Positions 36,576 to 44,810 of a stretch of 64,000 nucleotides of DNA are shown here, piece by piece. The notes beneath the pieces were generated by a model that did not search any database, was not told the DNA's origin, and saw only the letters and a program-made list of their open reading frames with translations. Every line of letters begins with the position of its first letter. Positions within the stretch are counted from its first letter, which is position 1. The DNA is from Clostridia bacterium (lineage in GTDB: Bacteria > Bacillota > Clostridia > Oscillospirales > CAG-272). The DNA is taken from positions 79,926-143,925 of the forward strand of contig JAFTPV010000013.1 in assembly GCA_017463125.1 (NCBI GenBank). The letters are read 5' to 3'. The position numbers and the translations under genes were made by a program.

Positions 36576-36862
36576 TTGTATTATTCTCCATTTCGTTTTG
36601 TTTACGGGTATTATTATAGCATATAAAAAAGGAAAAATGTTGATTTTTGTCTGTTCGGTCGCATTCCACGTCTTATCGGTTATAGCATAAAAGAAAAATA
36701 TGCAAGCCCGCTTTATATTCCAACGCTTAAAACCGTATTTTTGAGTTAACCATAAATCACAGGGATATAACGGCGCGCCGCTCTTCGTTCGCGTTATTGA
36801 CTTTGCGCCTTATTTATGCTACAATTATATATTATAAACGTATAAAAGTCAGAGGACTGAAA

Positions 36863-39736
36863 ATGGAAATAAACGAAAGCTATTTTGGATTTAATCTGAA
36901 ATCAAAAAGAGTAATATACGAGGTGTCGGGAACGCTTAATGTTTTCGAGCATGAAAAAAGCGGGGCGCGCCTTTGCTACCTTGAGCGAGAGGACGAGAAT
37001 AAGACCTTTGCCATAGCCTTCAAGACTCCTCCGAAGGACAGCACGGGCGTGTTTCATATAATAGAGCATTCGGTTCTCTCCGGATCGAGAAAATTTCCGG
37101 TAAAGGAGCCGTTCGTTGAGCTTCTCAAGGGGTCGCTCAACACCTTTCTCAACGCCCTGACGTACGAGGATAAAACGGTTTACCCCGTAGCATCCCGTAA
37201 CGAAAAGGACTTTTTTAATCTGACGGAGGTATATCTTGACGCGGTATTTCACCCGCTTATGCTTGAGGACGAAGCGATTTTTTACAACGAGGGCTGGCGT
37301 TACGAATACAGCGAAGGAGGCGAGCTGACCTATAACGGCGTCGTATATAACGAGATGAAGGGGGCGTACTCCTCCCCAGACGAGCTTGCGGTGTCATCGC
37401 TCAACAAGGCGCTGTTTACCGGCAGCATATACGAGTACGACTCGGGCGGCGACCCCGAAGAAATAACCCGGCTGTCATACGAGGACTTCGTCAACACACA
37501 CAAGCGCTATTATCATCCCTCAAATTCATATATTTTCCTTGACGGCTCACTTGATATCGAAAAGGCGCTCGGTCTTATAGACTCCTACCTCTCGGAATAT
37601 GAAAGAAAAGAGATGAATATTGCCGACACACCTGCCGCACCGCGCGACGCCGGTGTTATAAAAATCCCGTTTGAGCCTACGGGTGACGGCGAGGAGGCTC
37701 GGGTTATCTCGGCAAGCGTCTTTGCCGATTGTAACAAACCGGAAATGCTCGTAGCGACCTCAGTACTCCTTAATTCCATTGCCGGCGCAAACGACTCACC
37801 GCTGAAAAAGGCGATGATAGACGAGGGGCTTTGCGAGGACGTTTCGGTATTTACGAATACGGCTCTTATGCAAACGGTTATGCTGGAATATCACGGTGTT
37901 AGACCCGAATATGCCGAAAAAATTCTCGCACGTCAAAACGAAATACTGACCACACTTGCGGAAGGCGGACTTGATATGCAGACGGTAAGGGCAAATCTCG
38001 ACCGGCTAAAATTCAGATACAGAGAAAAGGACTACGGCTCTCTTCCAAAGGGCGTTGCATTTGCTTTTTCGGTATACGGGGTTTGGCTTTACGGGATAGA
38101 TCCCGCCGCCGCTCTATGCTACGAGGACACCCTCGAATATCTCTACTCAAGGCTTGATAGTGATTTTTATTTTAGCGTCCTTCGGGATATGCTTATAAGC
38201 ACGCACCACAGAGCTACGGCAATACTCGTACCCGACAAGACGTGCAGAGAAAGAAAAGAGGAGCTACTAAAAAATTCTCTTGCAAAAATCGATAAGGAGA
38301 TGAGCCGAGAGGATAAGGATAAAATCAAACGCATCGAGTGTCTTGTCAAAGAGAGAAACGAGTCGGAGGACTCCCCCGAGGCTCTTGCAAGTCTTCCAAC
38401 ACTCAAGCTCTCCGATATTAATCTGTCTGAAAAGGAAAATTTCACTCACGTTATTTCTAAAGACGGAGCAAAAATTTTGCACCACAAGCTCGAAACAGAA
38501 GGCATAATGTACACAGAACTTTACTTTTCCGTGCACGATCTTGATGAAAACGAGCTTTCTTTGCTCCCCGTTCTATCCTCGGTTTTAGCCAATTCCGACA
38601 CGGAAAATTATACCGAATCCGAGCTGAAAAACAAAATCAGATCCTCCCTTGGCAGCTTCAGCATTATTGCATCGGCAATTCCCGACGCACATGACACGTC
38701 TCTGGCAACACCATACGTTACCATACACACCAGCGCTCTTATAGAAAACCGAGATGAGCTTATTCACCTTATCGGTGAGGTTCTTACTAAAACGAAATTC
38801 ACGGACGTAAGGAATATCAAAAAAATCCTTCTTCAGATACGCTCTATTACAGAGGAATCTATCCTGCTTGGCGCAGACGGGGTTGCTATGGAGCGCGTAG
38901 ACTCGGCTCTTTGCGCCTGCGGTGCGACACAGGAAAAGATTTCAGGGCTTTTTGCGTATGAAAAAATAAAGGAATATATTCGTGATTTTGACAGTCGGGG
39001 CGAGACCTTTGCAAAAAGGCTATCAGAGCTTTCGGAGCGGATATTTATCAAAGAGCGACTGACCGTCGGATGCACAGGCTGTGACGAGCAGACGGGACGG
39101 GATATTGCAGAGCTTTTCCCCTCGGGCAATATCGGTAACAGAATAAAATTCGAGCCGAGCGGCATACGCATGGAAGGAATCTCTCTGCCCCTTGAAATTT
39201 CGCACACGGCATTTGGAATTTTCTCCGAAAAAATACCTTCTCACATAGGTGCCTTGAGAGTTGCGAGAAATATACTCTCATACGAATATCTGTGGGGCGA
39301 AATAAGGGTAAAGGGCGGAGCATACGGTACAGGCTTTACGGCAAGGCGTCACGGAACTGCCATCTTCTACTCCTACCGTGATCCGTCACCCGATGGTTCT
39401 CTAAAATGCTTTCTCAAGGCTGCTGACTTTTTGACCGATTTTGCTATGGGAGAGCCCGACCTCGCCAAATATATCATAGGCGCTATCGGGGAATACGATA
39501 TAATACAAACACCGAGAGCAAAGGCGACGGCTGCTACGATAAATCATCTTGCCTGCCGAGATGCGATGGATGAGAAGAAAATACGCGAGGATATTCTTAC
39601 AACGAGCTGTGCTTCTCTTCTTGAGGTAGCGGAACTTATCAGAGAGGCTCTGGTTCACTCATCCTTCACGGTAACGGCAAACGACGGTATACTAGATAGC
39701 GTTTGCGGGATAGGCGACAATATAATTATCCCGTGA
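36863..39736 (+). CDS. M16-family (insulinase/PreP-like) zinc metallopeptidase
   Basis: 'HIIEHSVLSGS' (HxxEH) and a length near 957 aa. ATG 36863 (MEINESYFGF) is preferred over the upstream alternative start. Confidence 0.85.
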   Translation: MEINESYFGFNLKSKRVIYEVSGTLNVFEHEKSGARLCYLEREDENKTFAIAFKTPPKDSTGVFHIIEHSVLSGSRKFPVKEPFVELLKGSLNTFLNALTYEDKTVYPVASRNEKDFFNLTEVYLDAVFHPLMLEDEAIFYNEGWRYEYSEGGELTYNGVVYNEMKGAYSSPDELAVSSLNKALFTGSIYEYDSGGDPEEITRLSYEDFVNTHKRYYHPSNSYIFLDGSLDIEKALGLIDSYLSEYERKEMNIADTPAAPRDAGVIKIPFEPTGDGEEARVISASVFADCNKPEMLVATSVLLNSIAGANDSPLKKAMIDEGLCEDVSVFTNTALMQTVMLEYHGVRPEYAEKILARQNEILTTLAEGGLDMQTVRANLDRLKFRYREKDYGSLPKGVAFAFSVYGVWLYGIDPAAALCYEDTLEYLYSRLDSDFYFSVLRDMLISTHHRATAILVPDKTCRERKEELLKNSLAKIDKEMSREDKDKIKRIECLVKERNESEDSPEALASLPTLKLSDINLSEKENFTHVISKDGAKILHHKLETEGIMYTELYFSVHDLDENELSLLPVLSSVLANSDTENYTESELKNKIRSSLGSFSIIASAIPDAHDTSLATPYVTIHTSALIENRDELIHLIGEVLTKTKFTDVRNIKKILLQIRSITEESILLGADGVAMERVDSALCACGATQEKISGLFAYEKIKEYIRDFDSRGETFAKRLSELSERIFIKERLTVGCTGCDEQTGRDIAELFPSGNIGNRIKFEPSGIRMEGISLPLEISHTAFGIFSEKIPSHIGALRVARNILSYEYLWGEIRVKGGAYGTGFTARRHGTAIFYSYRDPSPDGSLKCFLKAADFLTDFAMGEPDLAKYIIGAIGEYDIIQTPRAKATAATINHLACRDAMDEKKIREDILTTSCASLLEVAELIREALVHSSFTVTANDGILDSVCGIGDNIIIP

Positions 39737-39903
39737 CAGTTAAAATTAAAACAAATTAAAACAAAAATTTCAGGAAAGATTGACATTTTCCGCAGAACAG
39801 TGTATAATAATATGATGTAAATAAATGCTTTTTTGTATTGCGAATAAGAGAAAAGCCACAGTACAAAATAAGTGTAAGCAAAAAAATAAGAAAGGCAAAT
39901 TTT

Positions 39904-42003
39904 ATGGATTACAGGTACGAAGGCTGGGAAGGCTTTGAAGACGGTAAATGGACTAAAGAAATCCATGTCAGAAGCTTTATAACCCACAACTATACTCCCT
40001 ACGACGGCGACGATAAATTCCTCGTAGGCCCAACAAATGATACTCTAGAGCTTTGGGACCAGGTTCTTGAGCTTTCAAAGCAGGAAAGAGAGGCCGGCGG
40101 CGTTCTCGATATGGATACAAAGATCATATCCACGATAACCTCTCACGGCCCCGGTTATCTCAATAAAGAAAAAGAAAAAATCGTCGGCTTCCAGACAGAC
40201 AAGCCCTTCAAGCGTGCGCTTATGCCCTACGGAGGTATAAGAATGGCGGAGAAGGCATGCAAGGACAACGGCTACGAGATCGACCCCGAGGTGAAGGAAT
40301 TCTTCACCCTTCACAGAAAGACGCATAACGCCGGCGTTTTTGACGCATATACTCCCGAGATGCGCGCCTGCCGTTCAAGTCATATTATAACGGGTCTTCC
40401 CGATGCTTACGGCAGAGGCAGAATTATCGGCGACTACCGACGCGTTGCCCTCTACGGCGTTGACCGTCTTATCGAGGACAAGAAACAGCAGAAGGAAACC
40501 ACCCGCTCTACGATGCTTGCGGACGTTATCCGTGACAGAGAGGAGCTATCCGAGCAGATCCGCGCTCTTGAGGATCTTAAGAAAATGGCACTCGCCTACG
40601 GCTATGACATTTCTCTTCCCGCAAGAGATACCAAGGAGGCTATTCAGTGGCTCTATTTCGGATATCTTGCGGCAGTTAAGGAGCAGAACGGTGCGGCAAT
40701 GTCCCTCGGACGTACCTCAACCTTCCTCGATATTTATGCAGAGCGCGACCTTGCGCGCGGTACGTATACGGAAAGTGAGATTCAGGAGCTCGTCGACCAC
40801 TTCATTATGAAGCTGAGGCTCGTTAAATTTGCCCGTACTCCTGAGTACAATTCTCTCTTCTCCGGAGATCCCCAGTGGGTTACCGAGTCTATCGGCGGCA
40901 TGGCGGTTGACGGACGTCATCTCGTAACAAAGATGTCCTACCGTTATCTGCATACCCTCGAGAATCTCGGCGCGGCTCCCGAGCCAAACCTCACGGTTCT
41001 CTGGTCCACAAGACTTCCGGAGAATTTCAAGCGCTTCTGTGCAAGAATCTCTATCGAAACCTCGTCCGTTCAGTATGAGAATGACGACCTTATGCGCTTT
41101 ACACACGGCGACGACTACGCTATCGCCTGCTGCGTTTCATCTATGCGAGTTGGTAAGGAGATGCAGTTCTTCGGTGCTAGAGCAAACCTTGCAAAATGTC
41201 TGCTTTATGCTATCAACGGCGGTGTGGACGAAATAACCGGTAAGCAGATAGGCCCCGAATACAGAGCCGTAACTACCGAGTATCTCGATTACGACGACGT
41301 TATGAAAAAGTACGACGATATGATGAGATGGCTCGCAGGCGTTTACGTAAACACGCTGAACATCATTCACTATATGCACGACAAGTACTGCTACGAGAAG
41401 ATACAGATGGCCCTTCACGACAAGAACGTGACCCGCTGGTTTGCGACCGGTATCGCAGGTCTTTCGGTTGTGGCAGACTCGCTCTCGGCTATCAAGTACG
41501 CAAAGGTTAAGACTGTCAGAAACGATGCGGGAATCGTAGTAGACTACGAGATTGAGGGCGATTTCCCGAAATACGGCAACGACGATGACAGAGTTGACTC
41601 TATCGCGTACGAGATCGTCCATCGCTTCATGGAGCACGTGAGAAAGAACCACACGTACAGAGACAGTATTCCGACCACCTCTATCCTTACCATCACCTCA
41701 AACGTTGTTTACGGTAAGAACACCGGTGCTACTCCTGACGGACGTAAGCAGGGCGAGGCCTTTGCTCCCGGAGCTAACCCGATGCATAAGAGAGATACTC
41801 ACGGCGCTATTGCGTCCCTTGCCTCTGTATCAAAGCTCCCCTTCCGCGACGCGCAGGACGGCATTTCCAACACCTTCTCTATTATTCCCGGAGCGCTCGG
41901 TAAGGACGACGCTATCTTCGTTGGCGACATTGAGGTTGATATGGAATGCACGAGCGGCGCTTGCTCATCTCCCACACTCTTTGAGGGTCTTGACGCAAAA
42001 TAA
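39904..42003 (+). CDS. pflB: pyruvate formate-lyase, large fragment lacking the glycyl-radical domain
   Basis: Catalytic 'IACCVSSM' Cys-Cys, '[10 protein letters not shown]' and '[12 protein letters not shown]'. The ORF ends after a non-conserved 30-aa tail, before the glycyl-radical motif. Confidence 0.9.
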
Positions 42004-42026
42004 AGAACAAGAAAGGAAAAAACAAA

Positions 42027-42269
42027 ATGGCAGCAACAGAAAACCAGATAGATAATCTTGTATCACTTCTTGACGGATACGTTGAAAAGGGCGGACACCA
42101 CCTGAACGTCAACGTTTTTACCCGCGAGACGCTTCTTGATGCACAAAAGCATCCTGAAAAGTATCCACAGCTTACCGTCAGAGTCAGCGGCTATGCAGTT
42201 AATTTCATCAAGCTGACGAAGGAGCAGCAGGACGAGGTAATATCCCGTACCTTCCACGACAAGATATAA
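42027..42269 (+). CDS. stand-alone glycyl-radical domain (GrcA/YfiD-like), 80 aa
   Basis: '[17 protein letters not shown]...[35 protein letters not shown]' carries the RVSGYAV glycyl-radical motif. Its own SD (GAAAGGAAAA) and ATG lie 23 nt after the pflB stop. Confidence 0.85.
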
Positions 42270-42425
42270 TTTAATATCTATTACCGTAAAACCGCGTTGG
42301 CAGACACTCTGTCGGCGCGGTTTTTATTTCGCTATGCTCATGTGAGGGTCGAATTTGCTAAAAAATATTGATTATTGCGCGATTAAGTGATATAATAAAA
42401 GTAAATATAACCGTGAGGAATTACA

Positions 42426-43175
42426 ATGAGTAAGGATATAAAGGGTAAAATACACTCCATAGAGAGCTTCGGTACGGTTGACGGGCCCGGTATCCGCTTC
42501 GTTATCTTCTTGCAGGGCTGTCCTATGCGCTGTCTTTACTGTCACAACCCTGATACGTGGAATATGTCGGACGGAGATGAGATGAGCGCCGAGGAGCTTA
42601 TCAAGGAATATGAAAAAAACCGCGCCTTTTATACAAAGGGCGGCATTACCGTTACAGGCGGCGAGCCTCTTTTACAGGTTGATTTTGTTACAGAGCTTTT
42701 CAGACTTGCGAAGAAAAAAAATATCCATACCGCTATCGACACCTCGGGTATTACTTATACCAACGGCGGAAGGTCGCTCGATGAGCTTATGAAATATACT
42801 GATCTCGTGATGCTTGACGTAAAGCACATTGATTCTGAAAAGCACAAGGCTTTGACGGGACACTCAAACGAGCGCATACTCGCCTTTACAAAATATCTTG
42901 AAGAAAAAAATATACCCGTATGGATAAGGCACGTGGTAATTGAGGGATACACGGACGGTGAGGCAGACCTCTACGAGCTTGGCAGATTTATCGGAGGACT
43001 AAAAAACCTAAAAGCGCTTGACGTTTTGCCCTATCATACTATGGGCAAGGCAAAATACGAGGAGCTGGGGCTTGAATATCCACTCGCCAACGTCCCGCCT
43101 CTCACAGCCTCTGCCGCAAGGGTGGCAAAGGAGCATATTCTCCGAGGTGTGAGGGACGTAAGGGAGAATGTTTGA
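42426..43175 (+). CDS. pflA: pyruvate formate-lyase activating enzyme (radical SAM)
   Basis: 'GPGIRFVIFLQGCPMRCLYCHNPDTW' (CxxxCxxC cluster) and 'GGITVTGGEPL'. Confidence 0.92.
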   Translation: MSKDIKGKIHSIESFGTVDGPGIRFVIFLQGCPMRCLYCHNPDTWNMSDGDEMSAEELIKEYEKNRAFYTKGGITVTGGEPLLQVDFVTELFRLAKKKNIHTAIDTSGITYTNGGRSLDELMKYTDLVMLDVKHIDSEKHKALTGHSNERILAFTKYLEEKNIPVWIRHVVIEGYTDGEADLYELGRFIGGLKNLKALDVLPYHTMGKAKYEELGLEYPLANVPPLTASAARVAKEHILRGVRDVRENV

Positions 43176-43187
43176 AGGGAGAGCTTT

Positions 43188-43799
43188 ATGAAATATGACC
43201 TGTCGGAGCTTGATGCAAGAGTCAGGGCAAAAAAACGCGATTTTCTGACAAGGTTTACCGTAACGGCCGTCCTCGGACTTATGCTTATAGTGCTTGCCTT
43301 TGTAAATATTGCGGGCGACACTATGCGCCTTGCCTGCGGGATTACGGCTGCGGTAATGCTCTTTTACTTAAAAAATCTCTATGATGCATACGACGCAAAG
43401 ACTCTTTTCTCAAAGGAAATGAAGGGTGAAAACATAAAGGAGCATCTTTACACGGTATCCAAGGCGTACGGTCCGGGGTTAAGGTATAAGCAGGTGGGCT
43501 CCTCGGGCCTTCAGCCTTTTGCGCCGAACACCGGAGCGAATAAAAGAAAGCATTATCCAAATCTTAAAAGCTCGGTGTACTTAAGGCTTGAGGACGGTGA
43601 CGTCACGGAAATCAGAGGACTTAATAAGGAGCATATAGAGCTTTACGAGGAAGGTGACACCCTCTTTAAGCCGGCAGGCGCTAAATACCCGATAATTGTG
43701 AGCCGCTCCGTCACAAGACAGCCCTGCCCGCTCTGCGGCACGGTGAATGACGCCTCCGACACGGAATGTCTGACCTGCGCCCTGCCCTGCAATAAGTAA
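43188..43799 (+). CDS. hypothetical membrane protein with C-terminal zinc-ribbon (CPLCG...CLTC)
   Basis: Two hydrophobic helices near the N-terminus, and the Cys pairs 'CPLCGTVNDASDTECLTCALPC'. Confidence 0.5.
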   Translation: MKYDLSELDARVRAKKRDFLTRFTVTAVLGLMLIVLAFVNIAGDTMRLACGITAAVMLFYLKNLYDAYDAKTLFSKEMKGENIKEHLYTVSKAYGPGLRYKQVGSSGLQPFAPNTGANKRKHYPNLKSSVYLRLEDGDVTEIRGLNKEHIELYEEGDTLFKPAGAKYPIIVSRSVTRQPCPLCGTVNDASDTECLTCALPCNK

Positions 43800-43847
43800 A
43801 ATCTACACAAAATGTAAGAATTATTTTCTGAAAAGGAAGCCACTAGG

Positions 43848-44810
43848 ATGAAAAGAGTTTTGTCCACAACTCTTGTGTTATTTACTATAATACTTTTGAT
43901 TTTTGGTGCTGTGATGTTTTTCACAATTACCAATTTCACATCATATAACACCTCGCTGACCGTAGACGAGGACAATCGTCTGCTCTCGAGCGACGGAGAA
44001 AGCATTACTATCCTTCAGCTCACGGACGTACAAACGGCAAATCTTATAGAGTGCGCTATGGCGTACCCCTCCGTCAAGCGAATGGTTGATAAATGCAAGC
44101 CGGATATGATAGTTCTTACTGGTGACAACATCTCCGATAATTCGGACACTATGGTTTTATCGGCTTTTATAAGTCTTATGGACAGCTTTGAGCTTCCTTG
44201 GGCGCTTGTGTTCGGTAATCACGACAGAAATTCCGCCGTTTCTATGGAGGATATTTGTTCTTCAATTGAAGCAAGCAGGTACAGCCTCTTTAAGACAGGG
44301 TATCTTGATGACAGATACGGAAATTATTACTATAATATAGAGCTTCAGGGTGAAACTGTTCGTACTCTGATATTTATGGATTCTGCAAAATCTAATTTTA
44401 CCGAGGAGCAGGTCGAGTGGTATGAGAATACAGTAAGCTCGATTTCAAAGAGAGAGGGCGAGGTTATCCCCTCGTTTGTATTCTTCCATATTCCGATACA
44501 GCAGACCGAGGCAGCACATCAGATATACGCTGAAAACTCCTCCGTAGGCTCGGGAATACAGGCTGATAAGGTGGACGTTCAAGACGAGGACACGGGATTT
44601 TTTGACACCGCGAAGACTCTCGGCAGTACAGACGCGCTTTTCTACGGACACGACCATAGGAACAATACCTTCATAGAATACGAGGATATTCTTTTCTGCT
44701 ACGGAAGAAAAACGGGTACTACGGTTTACTTCGAGCCGGGAATGACGGGTGCAAATCTTATCACCGTTACGGCAGATGATTTTACCGTAGAACGCGTAGA
44801 TTGGAAATAA
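43848..44810 (+). CDS. calcineurin-like metallophosphoesterase with signal-anchor
   Basis: 'ILQLTDVQ', 'VLTGDNISD', 'VFGNHD', 'FFHIP', 'FYGHDH' motifs. Confidence 0.8.
   Translation: MKRVLSTTLVLFTIILLIFGAVMFFTITNFTSYNTSLTVDEDNRLLSSDGESITILQLTDVQTANLIECAMAYPSVKRMVDKCKPDMIVLTGDNISDNSDTMVLSAFISLMDSFELPWALVFGNHDRNSAVSMEDICSSIEASRYSLFKTGYLDDRYGNYYYNIELQGETVRTLIFMDSAKSNFTEEQVEWYENTVSSISKREGEVIPSFVFFHIPIQQTEAAHQIYAENSSVGSGIQADKVDVQDEDTGFFDTAKTLGSTDALFYGHDHRNNTFIEYEDILFCYGRKTGTTVYFEPGMTGANLITVTADDFTVERVDWK

Follow-up and report, generated by a model that had tools for sequence, protein, structure and literature searches.

We analysed a stretch of 64,000 nucleotides (nt; the window) from a Clostridia bacterium (CAG-272; assembly GCA_017463125.1, contig JAFTPV010000013.1, positions 79,926–143,925, forward strand) in which the gene for pyruvate formate-lyase (PFL) is divided between two open reading frames (ORFs). 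A large ORF encodes the catalytic body, a small ORF directly downstream encodes a stand-alone glycyl-radical domain, and pflA, the gene for the PFL-activating enzyme, follows (Table 1). No glycyl radical enzyme is more widespread than PFL, which carries out a central step of anaerobic pyruvate metabolism. In its mechanism the radical passes from Gly734 to Cys419, then to Cys418 and finally to pyruvate (residue numbers of the E. coli enzyme). The division of the gene is conserved among relatives, and the two products probably form an obligate two-subunit enzyme.

In both the ORF list and the raw sequence, the large ORF runs from an ATG at 39904 to a TAA stop at 42001–42003. The small ORF opens with an ATG at 42027, in a frame offset of +2 relative to the large ORF, and is preceded by a Shine-Dalgarno-like AAGGA (42013–42017) inside the spacer. 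Its RVSGYAV motif holds Gly55 (codon 42189–42191). The adjacent cysteines of the large ORF, Cys409 and Cys410, are invariant across a 24-sequence alignment of relatives. The pair of genes is flanked by a TTGACA-17-TATAAT match on the 5' side and by a terminator hairpin on the 3' side (−25.5 kcal/mol; z = −5.06 versus shuffles). Sigma-70-type consensus matches number 5 in the region, against 4.9 expected, and so show no enrichment. An Rfam scan of positions 39000–44000 found no RNA family, and no second PFL was found within the window.

Table 1. Features of the two-piece PFL locus, with examples of related loci. Positions are those of the window unless preceded by a locus label (L).
Feature	Position	Strand	Basis
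Large ORF, PFL catalytic subunit, 699 residues, without the glycyl-radical hairpin	39904–42003	+	Pfam, TIGR01255
Codons of catalytic Cys409-Cys410 (E. coli Cys418/Cys419)	41128–41133	+	IACCVSS
C-terminal tail of the large ORF, 30 residues	41911–42000	+	Conserved within the split family
Intercistronic spacer, 23 nt, containing GAAAGGAAAA	42004–42026	+	Read from the sequence
Small ORF, glycyl-radical subunit, 80 residues, GrcA3 class	42027–42269	+	NF038360, TIGR01255
pflA, radical-SAM PFL-activating enzyme, 249 residues	42426–43175	+	TIGR02493, 309.7 bits (cut-off 231.75)
Sigma-70-type promoter-like site upstream of the large ORF, TTGACA-17 nt-TATAAT, 12/12	39780–39808	+	Consensus match only
Promoter-like site upstream of pflA, TTGATT-17 nt-TG-TATAAT	42368–42396	+	Consensus match only
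Intrinsic terminator, 17-bp hairpin (42288–42324) followed by UUUUUAUUU	42288–42333	+	Folding energy
Middle ORFs, examples	L037:3730–3984; L059:3728–3961; L060:3755–3979; L029:3748–3978; L065:3762–3971		
Phage-like loci with stand-alone GrcA3-class genes	L101:800–3793; L102:230–3225; L093:207–3733; L092:2989–3225; L096:2995–3228		

The PFL family model is divided almost exactly between the two ORFs. TIGR01255 matches the large ORF over model positions 2–666 of 744 with 1101.7 bits (cut-off 994.2) and the small ORF over positions 663–744 of 744. The Pfam PFL-like family (PF02901) matches the large ORF with 740.5 bits, and Pfam Gly_radical is divided between the two, with positions 1–50 on the large ORF and 49–106 on the small ORF. 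Aligned with E. coli PFL (1H16), residue 671 of the large ORF corresponds to residue 680, and residues 9–77 of the small ORF to 683–756. By this alignment Gly55 is the equivalent of E. coli Gly734, and Cys409/Cys410 that of Cys418/Cys419 (an offset of 9). The canonical PFL sequence is thus complete across the two ORFs and nothing is lost; about 140 nt (tail, stop, spacer and eight N-terminal codons) replace about six codons of canonical PFLs. In family score, in its adjacent catalytic cysteines and in the pflA gene nearby, the locus is that of a PFL, with the one departure that the radical glycine does not lie on the barrel polypeptide: RVSGYAV is on the separate 80-residue ORF. When the last 66 residues were used to look for homologues, the matches were contig-end fragments only.

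A preliminary description of this DNA, whose coordinates and sequences for both ORFs, the spacer and the pflA start were all correct, had taken the locus for a natural two-piece PFL with pflA downstream and not for a simple frameshift, and had proposed a comparison with orthologues in related Clostridia. That comparison bears it out on both counts. We scanned one genome per GTDB species and found at least 595 relatives; the counts given here refer to the best 80. In 78 of these 80 closest species-level genomes the small ORF is short and separate, and in two (L053 and L083) it is fused to the body. The truncated PFL lies immediately upstream in 74 of the 78 split cases; three more small ORFs are at contig ends and one (L052) stands alone. 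In 61 of the 80, the small ORF is followed directly by a pflA homologue. The identical 80-residue protein adjoins a 699–700-residue PFL on at least ten independent metagenome contigs. Among metagenome-assembled genomes (MAGs), carriers belong to the Oscillospiraceae, Acutalibacteraceae, Ruminococcus, Lachnospiraceae (Blautia, Dorea, Drancourtella, Enterocloster), Atopobium-like bacteria, Melainabacteria and Spirochaetales, and the split is also present in the complete genome of an isolate, Sellimonas caecigallum JCM 35759, at locus L043. The junction itself varies: among the relatives the small ORF is offset in frame by 0, 1 or 2 relative to the large one, and the spacing goes from an overlap of 26 nt (−26) up to about 400 nt.

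A length of 697–721 residues is shared by 118 of the 120 best database homologues of the large ORF. The two longer ones, P0244 (805 residues) and P0245 (821 residues), contain internal tandem duplications of about 100–120 residues, with the tail still terminal, and these duplications are probably assembly artefacts. One in-frame stop breaks the large ORF in L011 (1879–3975). The arrangement of the pair also varies. In a tail-less split (L097:920–3228) the large ORF ends ...SLGKDED, followed by a stop, 14 nt containing AGGAGG and the ATG of the small ORF, and in two loci (L098 and L106) the small gene stands before the large one. Of the two fused forms, L083 (1997–4231) has a short canonical linker, and in L053 (1841–4225, from a Treponemataceae MAG) the linker extends over about 40 residues, with a C-x2-C and without the IFxGD motif of split-type tails. 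Both are placed inside the split clade of a neighbour-joining tree of catalytic cores, which makes re-fusion possible but does not show it, as the tree is unrooted and unsupported (midpoint rooting, no outgroup, no support values). With the small ORF as query, cluster representatives yielded 4914 matches at E values up to 0.001; among the best 150 of these, 149 have 67–391 residues and one has 756. Since fragments and alternative start calls are included, these lengths were not used as a count of split and fused forms.

The tail of the large ORF is characteristic of the split family. After GKDD, the pattern x-[IV]-F-x-G-[DE]-[IL]-x-[VIL]-[DE] follows in almost all large subunits of the split type, and in the clade of the window the tail goes on with LDC-x4 and further residues. 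In the window itself, a xIFxGDIxVD segment (41911–41940) is followed by a Cys-loop module starting with C-x4 (41947–41994). Nei-Gojobori counts over 19 distinct relatives, with synonymous sites saturated, gave a ratio of nonsynonymous to synonymous differences (pN/pS) of 0.20 for the whole tail, 0.07 for PTLFEGLD and 0.09 for the 60 catalytic-core codons upstream. The sequences were chosen by motif pattern, and the resulting bias is small because nearly all of the closest relatives matched the pattern. The tail is under purifying selection. The preliminary description had called it non-conserved, which does not hold: the tail is absent from canonical PFLs, but it is selected and, as described below, homologous to part of another small ORF. 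Its types track clades in the tree of catalytic cores, which was used for this comparison only and not for counting fission or re-fusion. Type A is the form of the window, type B has ELEPDCACCEPN, and type C is a short acidic tail. As a working guess, the tail may be what the small subunit docks on or is recognised by, or its two cysteines, Cys682 and Cys687, may form a thiol or metal site.

Loci with a gap of 190–400 nt contain a third ORF of 57–91 residues between the truncated PFL and the GrcA3-like gene. This middle ORF is present in about 27 of the 80 related genomes, from which we collected 27 ORFs; it has its own ribosome-binding site and often overlaps the stop of the large ORF. Ruminococcus sp. 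210702-SL.1.03, at locus L029, is one carrier of this three-gene form. In its N-terminal half (e.g. IDELVKMIDSFMENNGGHMNI) the middle ORF repeats, in diverged form, the small subunit's N-terminal helix and β10 strand: middle ORFs reach up to 30.6 bits against a profile hidden Markov model (HMM) built from the small-subunit N-terminus, and hhalign of the middle ORF against the small subunit gives a probability of 91% (E = 1e-6), confident over the N-terminal segment only. Weak matches to GrcA3 positions 2–34 and to Pfam Gly_radical positions 49–83 were also obtained. The C-terminal half reads ...V-x-T-V-x-S-T-D-C-G-x-K-G-A-C-x-x-P-T..., with the motif C-x(3-5)-C-x-x-P-T. An HMM of this half scores 18–29 bits on type-A tails and 22.8 on the tail of the window, against a best score of 10.4 bits on shuffled tails (n = 1620). 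By this match, a module that in other lineages is encoded as part of a separate small protein is, in the window, fused to the large ORF as its tail. Besides the weak match to the GrcA3 N-terminus, neither tails nor middle ORFs matched a Pfam or NCBIfam family.

Compared with the GrcA families, the small ORF is a member of GrcA3 (NF038360; 170.5 bits, cut-off 158, positions 2–78 of 78) and falls below the cut-offs of GrcA (TIGR04365; 94.0 bits versus 170, over model positions 67–125 only) and GrcA2 (NF008341; 104 versus 145). The N-terminal region of about 60 residues that is typical of GrcA is missing: eight residues precede the PFL homology, and the alignment with 6OWR starts at GrcA residue 68. 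Within the 64-kb window a full-length partner PFL is likewise missing, the adjacent PFL being without a radical domain and the only one there. The name of the GrcA3 family implies a repair factor. Because the usual partner is a PFL that lacks the radical domain, the small protein is most likely an obligate subunit and not a repair factor. In GenBank, proteins identical to the large and small ORFs are recorded from one Clostridia MAG as formate C-acetyltransferase (MBQ8321462.1) and autonomous glycyl radical cofactor GrcA (MBQ8321463.1); close relatives of the small ORF are labelled GrcA3, and its 90% cluster has 1685 members. Annotation pipelines call the truncated body a complete formate C-acetyltransferase, and what is most likely its obligate subunit a repair factor.

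GrcA3-class genes also occur alone. Phage-like IMG/VR contigs of 140–330 kb carry stand-alone genes of 77–86 codons (154–159 bits), in three contigs between complete nrdD and nrdG genes, and no PFL body lies within 3 kb of the phage-like copies. The solitary gene of L052 (4001–4243; Gastranaerophilales MAG) encodes an 80-residue GrcA3-like protein; no PFL lies in the 4 kb upstream of it, where a ferritin-like gene and a divergent Crp/Fnr-like regulator are found. A small protein encoded in this way would need to be able to join a partner made elsewhere. About 30 further IMG/VR contigs (L107–L136) of about 104–122 kb, a T5-like size, including IMGVR_UViG_638276020_000001 (121,750 bp), encode a GrcA-type protein of 128–152 residues, which matches residues 21–76/80 of the query only and has a longer, unrelated N-terminal region.

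The gene upstream of the PFL pair (36797–39736, + strand) encodes an M16-family (PreP-like) peptidase of about 960 residues. Directly 3' of pflA is an ORF of 203 codons (43188–43799, + strand). Hydrophobic segments are predicted at its N-terminus, and a CPLCG...CLTCALPC motif at its C-terminus resembles a zinc ribbon. This ORF matched no Pfam or NCBIfam family, and its homologues were confined to the five closest contigs. The gene order peptidase, PFL large, PFL small, pflA, ORF203 and metallophosphatase is common to the closest contigs.

On the sequence evidence we assign a probability of about 0.75 to an obligate two-subunit PFL. The large chain cannot carry the radical and the small chain can, and from the PFL mechanism we infer that the enzyme must assemble from both. 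The 699-residue protein would supply nine of the ten barrel strands together with the Cys409/Cys410 finger, and the 80-residue protein would supply the remaining helix, strand β10, the Gly55 radical hairpin and the C-terminal helix, docking non-covalently at the place that the covalent C-terminus occupies in E. coli PflB. The two genes seem to share one transcript that runs from a single promoter to a single terminator, with translation of the small gene starting from its own Shine-Dalgarno site and ATG, and PflA would put the radical on Gly55 in trans. The tail would be a family-specific add-on that may help to hold, to recognise or to time the binding of the small subunit. Since the radical part is a separate 9-kDa protein, a copy cleaved by oxygen could be swapped for a fresh one, and the 78-kDa body would not have to be remade. 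Repair by such an exchange is plausible in view of the precedent set by GrcA, of a split that has persisted across phyla with its add-ons, and of the stand-alone GrcA3-class genes.

Three points weigh against a two-subunit enzyme of this kind. First, structure prediction of the joined large and small chain was unusable, with a mean predicted local distance difference test score (pLDDT) of 33.7 without an alignment, and of 46.0 with an unpaired alignment of homologues at least 87% identical, the C-terminal half staying below 50; a Foldseek search with the low-pLDDT joined-chain model returned E. coli PFL only. Second, in an engineered pair of tPFL(1–695) and truncated YfiD(61–127) binding was too weak to measure (Andorfer et al., 2021; PMC8683613) and activation was about six-fold less than for cPFL with YfiD (PMC8683613), so that simple fission is not automatically functional. 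Third, the search for a second PFL covered the 64-kb window only.

The alternative that survives best, though we hold it to be doubtful, is a stable heterodimer that arose by neutral gene fission, whose chains never exchange and which gains no repair advantage. Translational coupling of the adjacent genes would imply roughly 1:1 synthesis, as expected of a permanent complex, and the fused forms inside the split clade of the rough tree suggest that fission and fusion are easily tolerated. This alternative accords less well with a split kept across many lineages, out to MAGs that are Coriobacteriia-like or belong to the Melainabacteria and Spirochaetales, with the dedicated, conserved add-ons (the tail and the middle ORF), and with GrcA3-class genes that stand alone in phage-like contigs and in L052.

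It is unlikely that the small ORF is a classical spare part that repairs a full-length PFL encoded elsewhere, next to a truncated PFL that is inactive or has another role. The names in use (rad_fix_GrcA3 as the NCBI family name, GrcA as the GenBank label), the limited extent of the PFL search and the occurrence of the small gene apart from a truncated PFL, in L052 and the phage-like contigs, all fit such a role. The large ORF, however, has kept its Cys-Cys pair, is under strong purifying selection in its core and scores above the TIGR01255 equivalog cut-off. The exact partition point, the adjacency in 74 of 78 genomes and the lack of any other PFL in 64 kb argue in the same direction. The small protein also lacks the N-terminal region of about 60 residues that GrcA needs for efficient activation in E. 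coli.

Production of a single polypeptide, through programmed frameshifting, readthrough or post-translational ligation (e.g. by a split intein), is very improbable. The A-rich spacer of 23 nt could in principle be slippery; recoding, for which there is no conserved signal, is excluded because the frame offset and the length of the spacer, which in some relatives accommodates a whole extra ORF, vary. The Rfam scan also found no RNA family in the region. A split intein was rejected along with frameshifting, as domain searches of the tail and of the small-subunit N-terminus revealed no intein or other domain and the junction residues are not conserved. An artefact or decay, that is, an assembly or sequencing error in a continuous pflB or a pseudogene, is effectively refuted: the assembly is of metagenome type, L011 has its extra stop and two database proteins have assembly duplications, but the same arrangement recurs on independent contigs and in nearly all close relatives, including the complete isolate genome, the inserted sequence is no indel, the tail is under purifying selection, and a Shine-Dalgarno site and ATG precede the small ORF.

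More tentatively, split PFLs could form a widespread "radical cartridge" system of gut and rumen anaerobes, with the small subunit as a consumable that would be activated, inserted, destroyed by oxygen and replaced. The conserved Cys module, which is the tail in the window and part of a separate protein of 57–91 residues in about a third of relatives, might govern loading or exchange, and phages might bring their own cartridge. The middle protein could then be a placeholder or decoy that fills the slot in the barrel, or work as a switch based on thiols or a metal.

Two-piece PFLs are common in Ruminococcus, Blautia, Dorea, Sellimonas and relatives of the Oscillospiraceae. If the proposal is correct, they would offer a clean system in which to study the activase's access to a glycine that lies buried once the enzyme has assembled, would bear on how strict gut anaerobes cope with transient oxygen, and could serve as a template for repairable engineered glycyl radical enzymes. 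They would also show what nature has added to make the combination of tPFL and a mini-GrcA work, the engineered E. coli version having worked poorly: the chain is broken further upstream, the body bears a conserved tail, and in some relatives there is a third protein.

Among known systems, E. coli PflB and PflA (1H16, 2PFL) share with the locus the fold family, the Cys-Cys pair, RVSGYAV and the activase family, and the alignment runs from end to end. They differ in that the radical domain of PflB is its covalent C-terminus, whereas the equivalent of residues 683–756 is a separate product here, and in that PflB has no counterpart of the 30-residue tail. GrcA/YfiD (TIGR04365; PDB 6OWR) and phage T4 Y06I are likewise small stand-alone homologues of the PFL C-terminus, and GrcA/YfiD is activated by PflA and acts in trans with a PFL body. 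In E. coli, GrcA/YfiD rescues oxygen-cleaved PFL (PMC8683613; PMC13450708); this rescue, like the activation, however weak, of the engineered tPFL(1–695) and YfiD(61–127) pair, sets a precedent for function in trans and so favours the two-subunit reading. GrcA has 127 residues with a disordered N-terminal region of about 60 and repairs a full-length PFL after oxygen cleavage, whereas the small ORF has 80 residues and starts about 10 residues before its homology to GrcA sets in.

Benzylsuccinate synthase (α-β-γ) and 4-hydroxyphenylacetate decarboxylase likewise combine a large glycyl radical enzyme with small Cys-containing polypeptides. In these enzymes, however, the radical glycine stays on the large subunit, and the small subunits, unrelated in sequence, carry [4Fe-4S] clusters. 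An Fe-S small subunit of this type (benzylsuccinate synthase β/γ or HpdC) was considered for the tail and middle ORF and rejected, as these have 2–3 Cys only and no family match.

Literature searches, including full text, found no description of a split PFL, and a June 2026 review of glycyl radical enzymes has YfiD/GrcA as the only spare-part protein and no split PFL (PMC13450708). An obligate small subunit, the wide spread in gut and rumen Clostridia and the tail/middle-ORF module are all absent from the searchable literature. Two PDB entries named "Formate acetyltransferase", 38lb (739 residues) and 38la (687 residues), are large subunits of a truncated-type PFL. The chain of 38lb ends in a Cys-rich tail of the same family (...ALGKSGNVMFGECDMCEM...PDCACAADASAKEGCED), and that of 38la ends ...ALGK, with the tail removed; the tail subtype differs from that of the window and is Atopobium-like, as in L085. 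No small-subunit chain is deposited with either entry in the PDB sequence file, and no associated paper was found. Neither entry is in a structure library ending 2026-04-08, so both are probably recent; structural work on a split-type PFL is apparently under way and unpublished.

The engineered pair described above resembles the natural one in its design: a minimal radical domain complements a PFL body that lacks β10 and the Gly loop. In the natural pair the break is about 13–20 residues upstream of the engineered one, so that the natural small subunit keeps the preceding helix, and the natural body, unlike the engineered tPFL, bears a conserved tail. The split PFL is thus a real and conserved variant of the PFL/GrcA theme and not a new kind of system.

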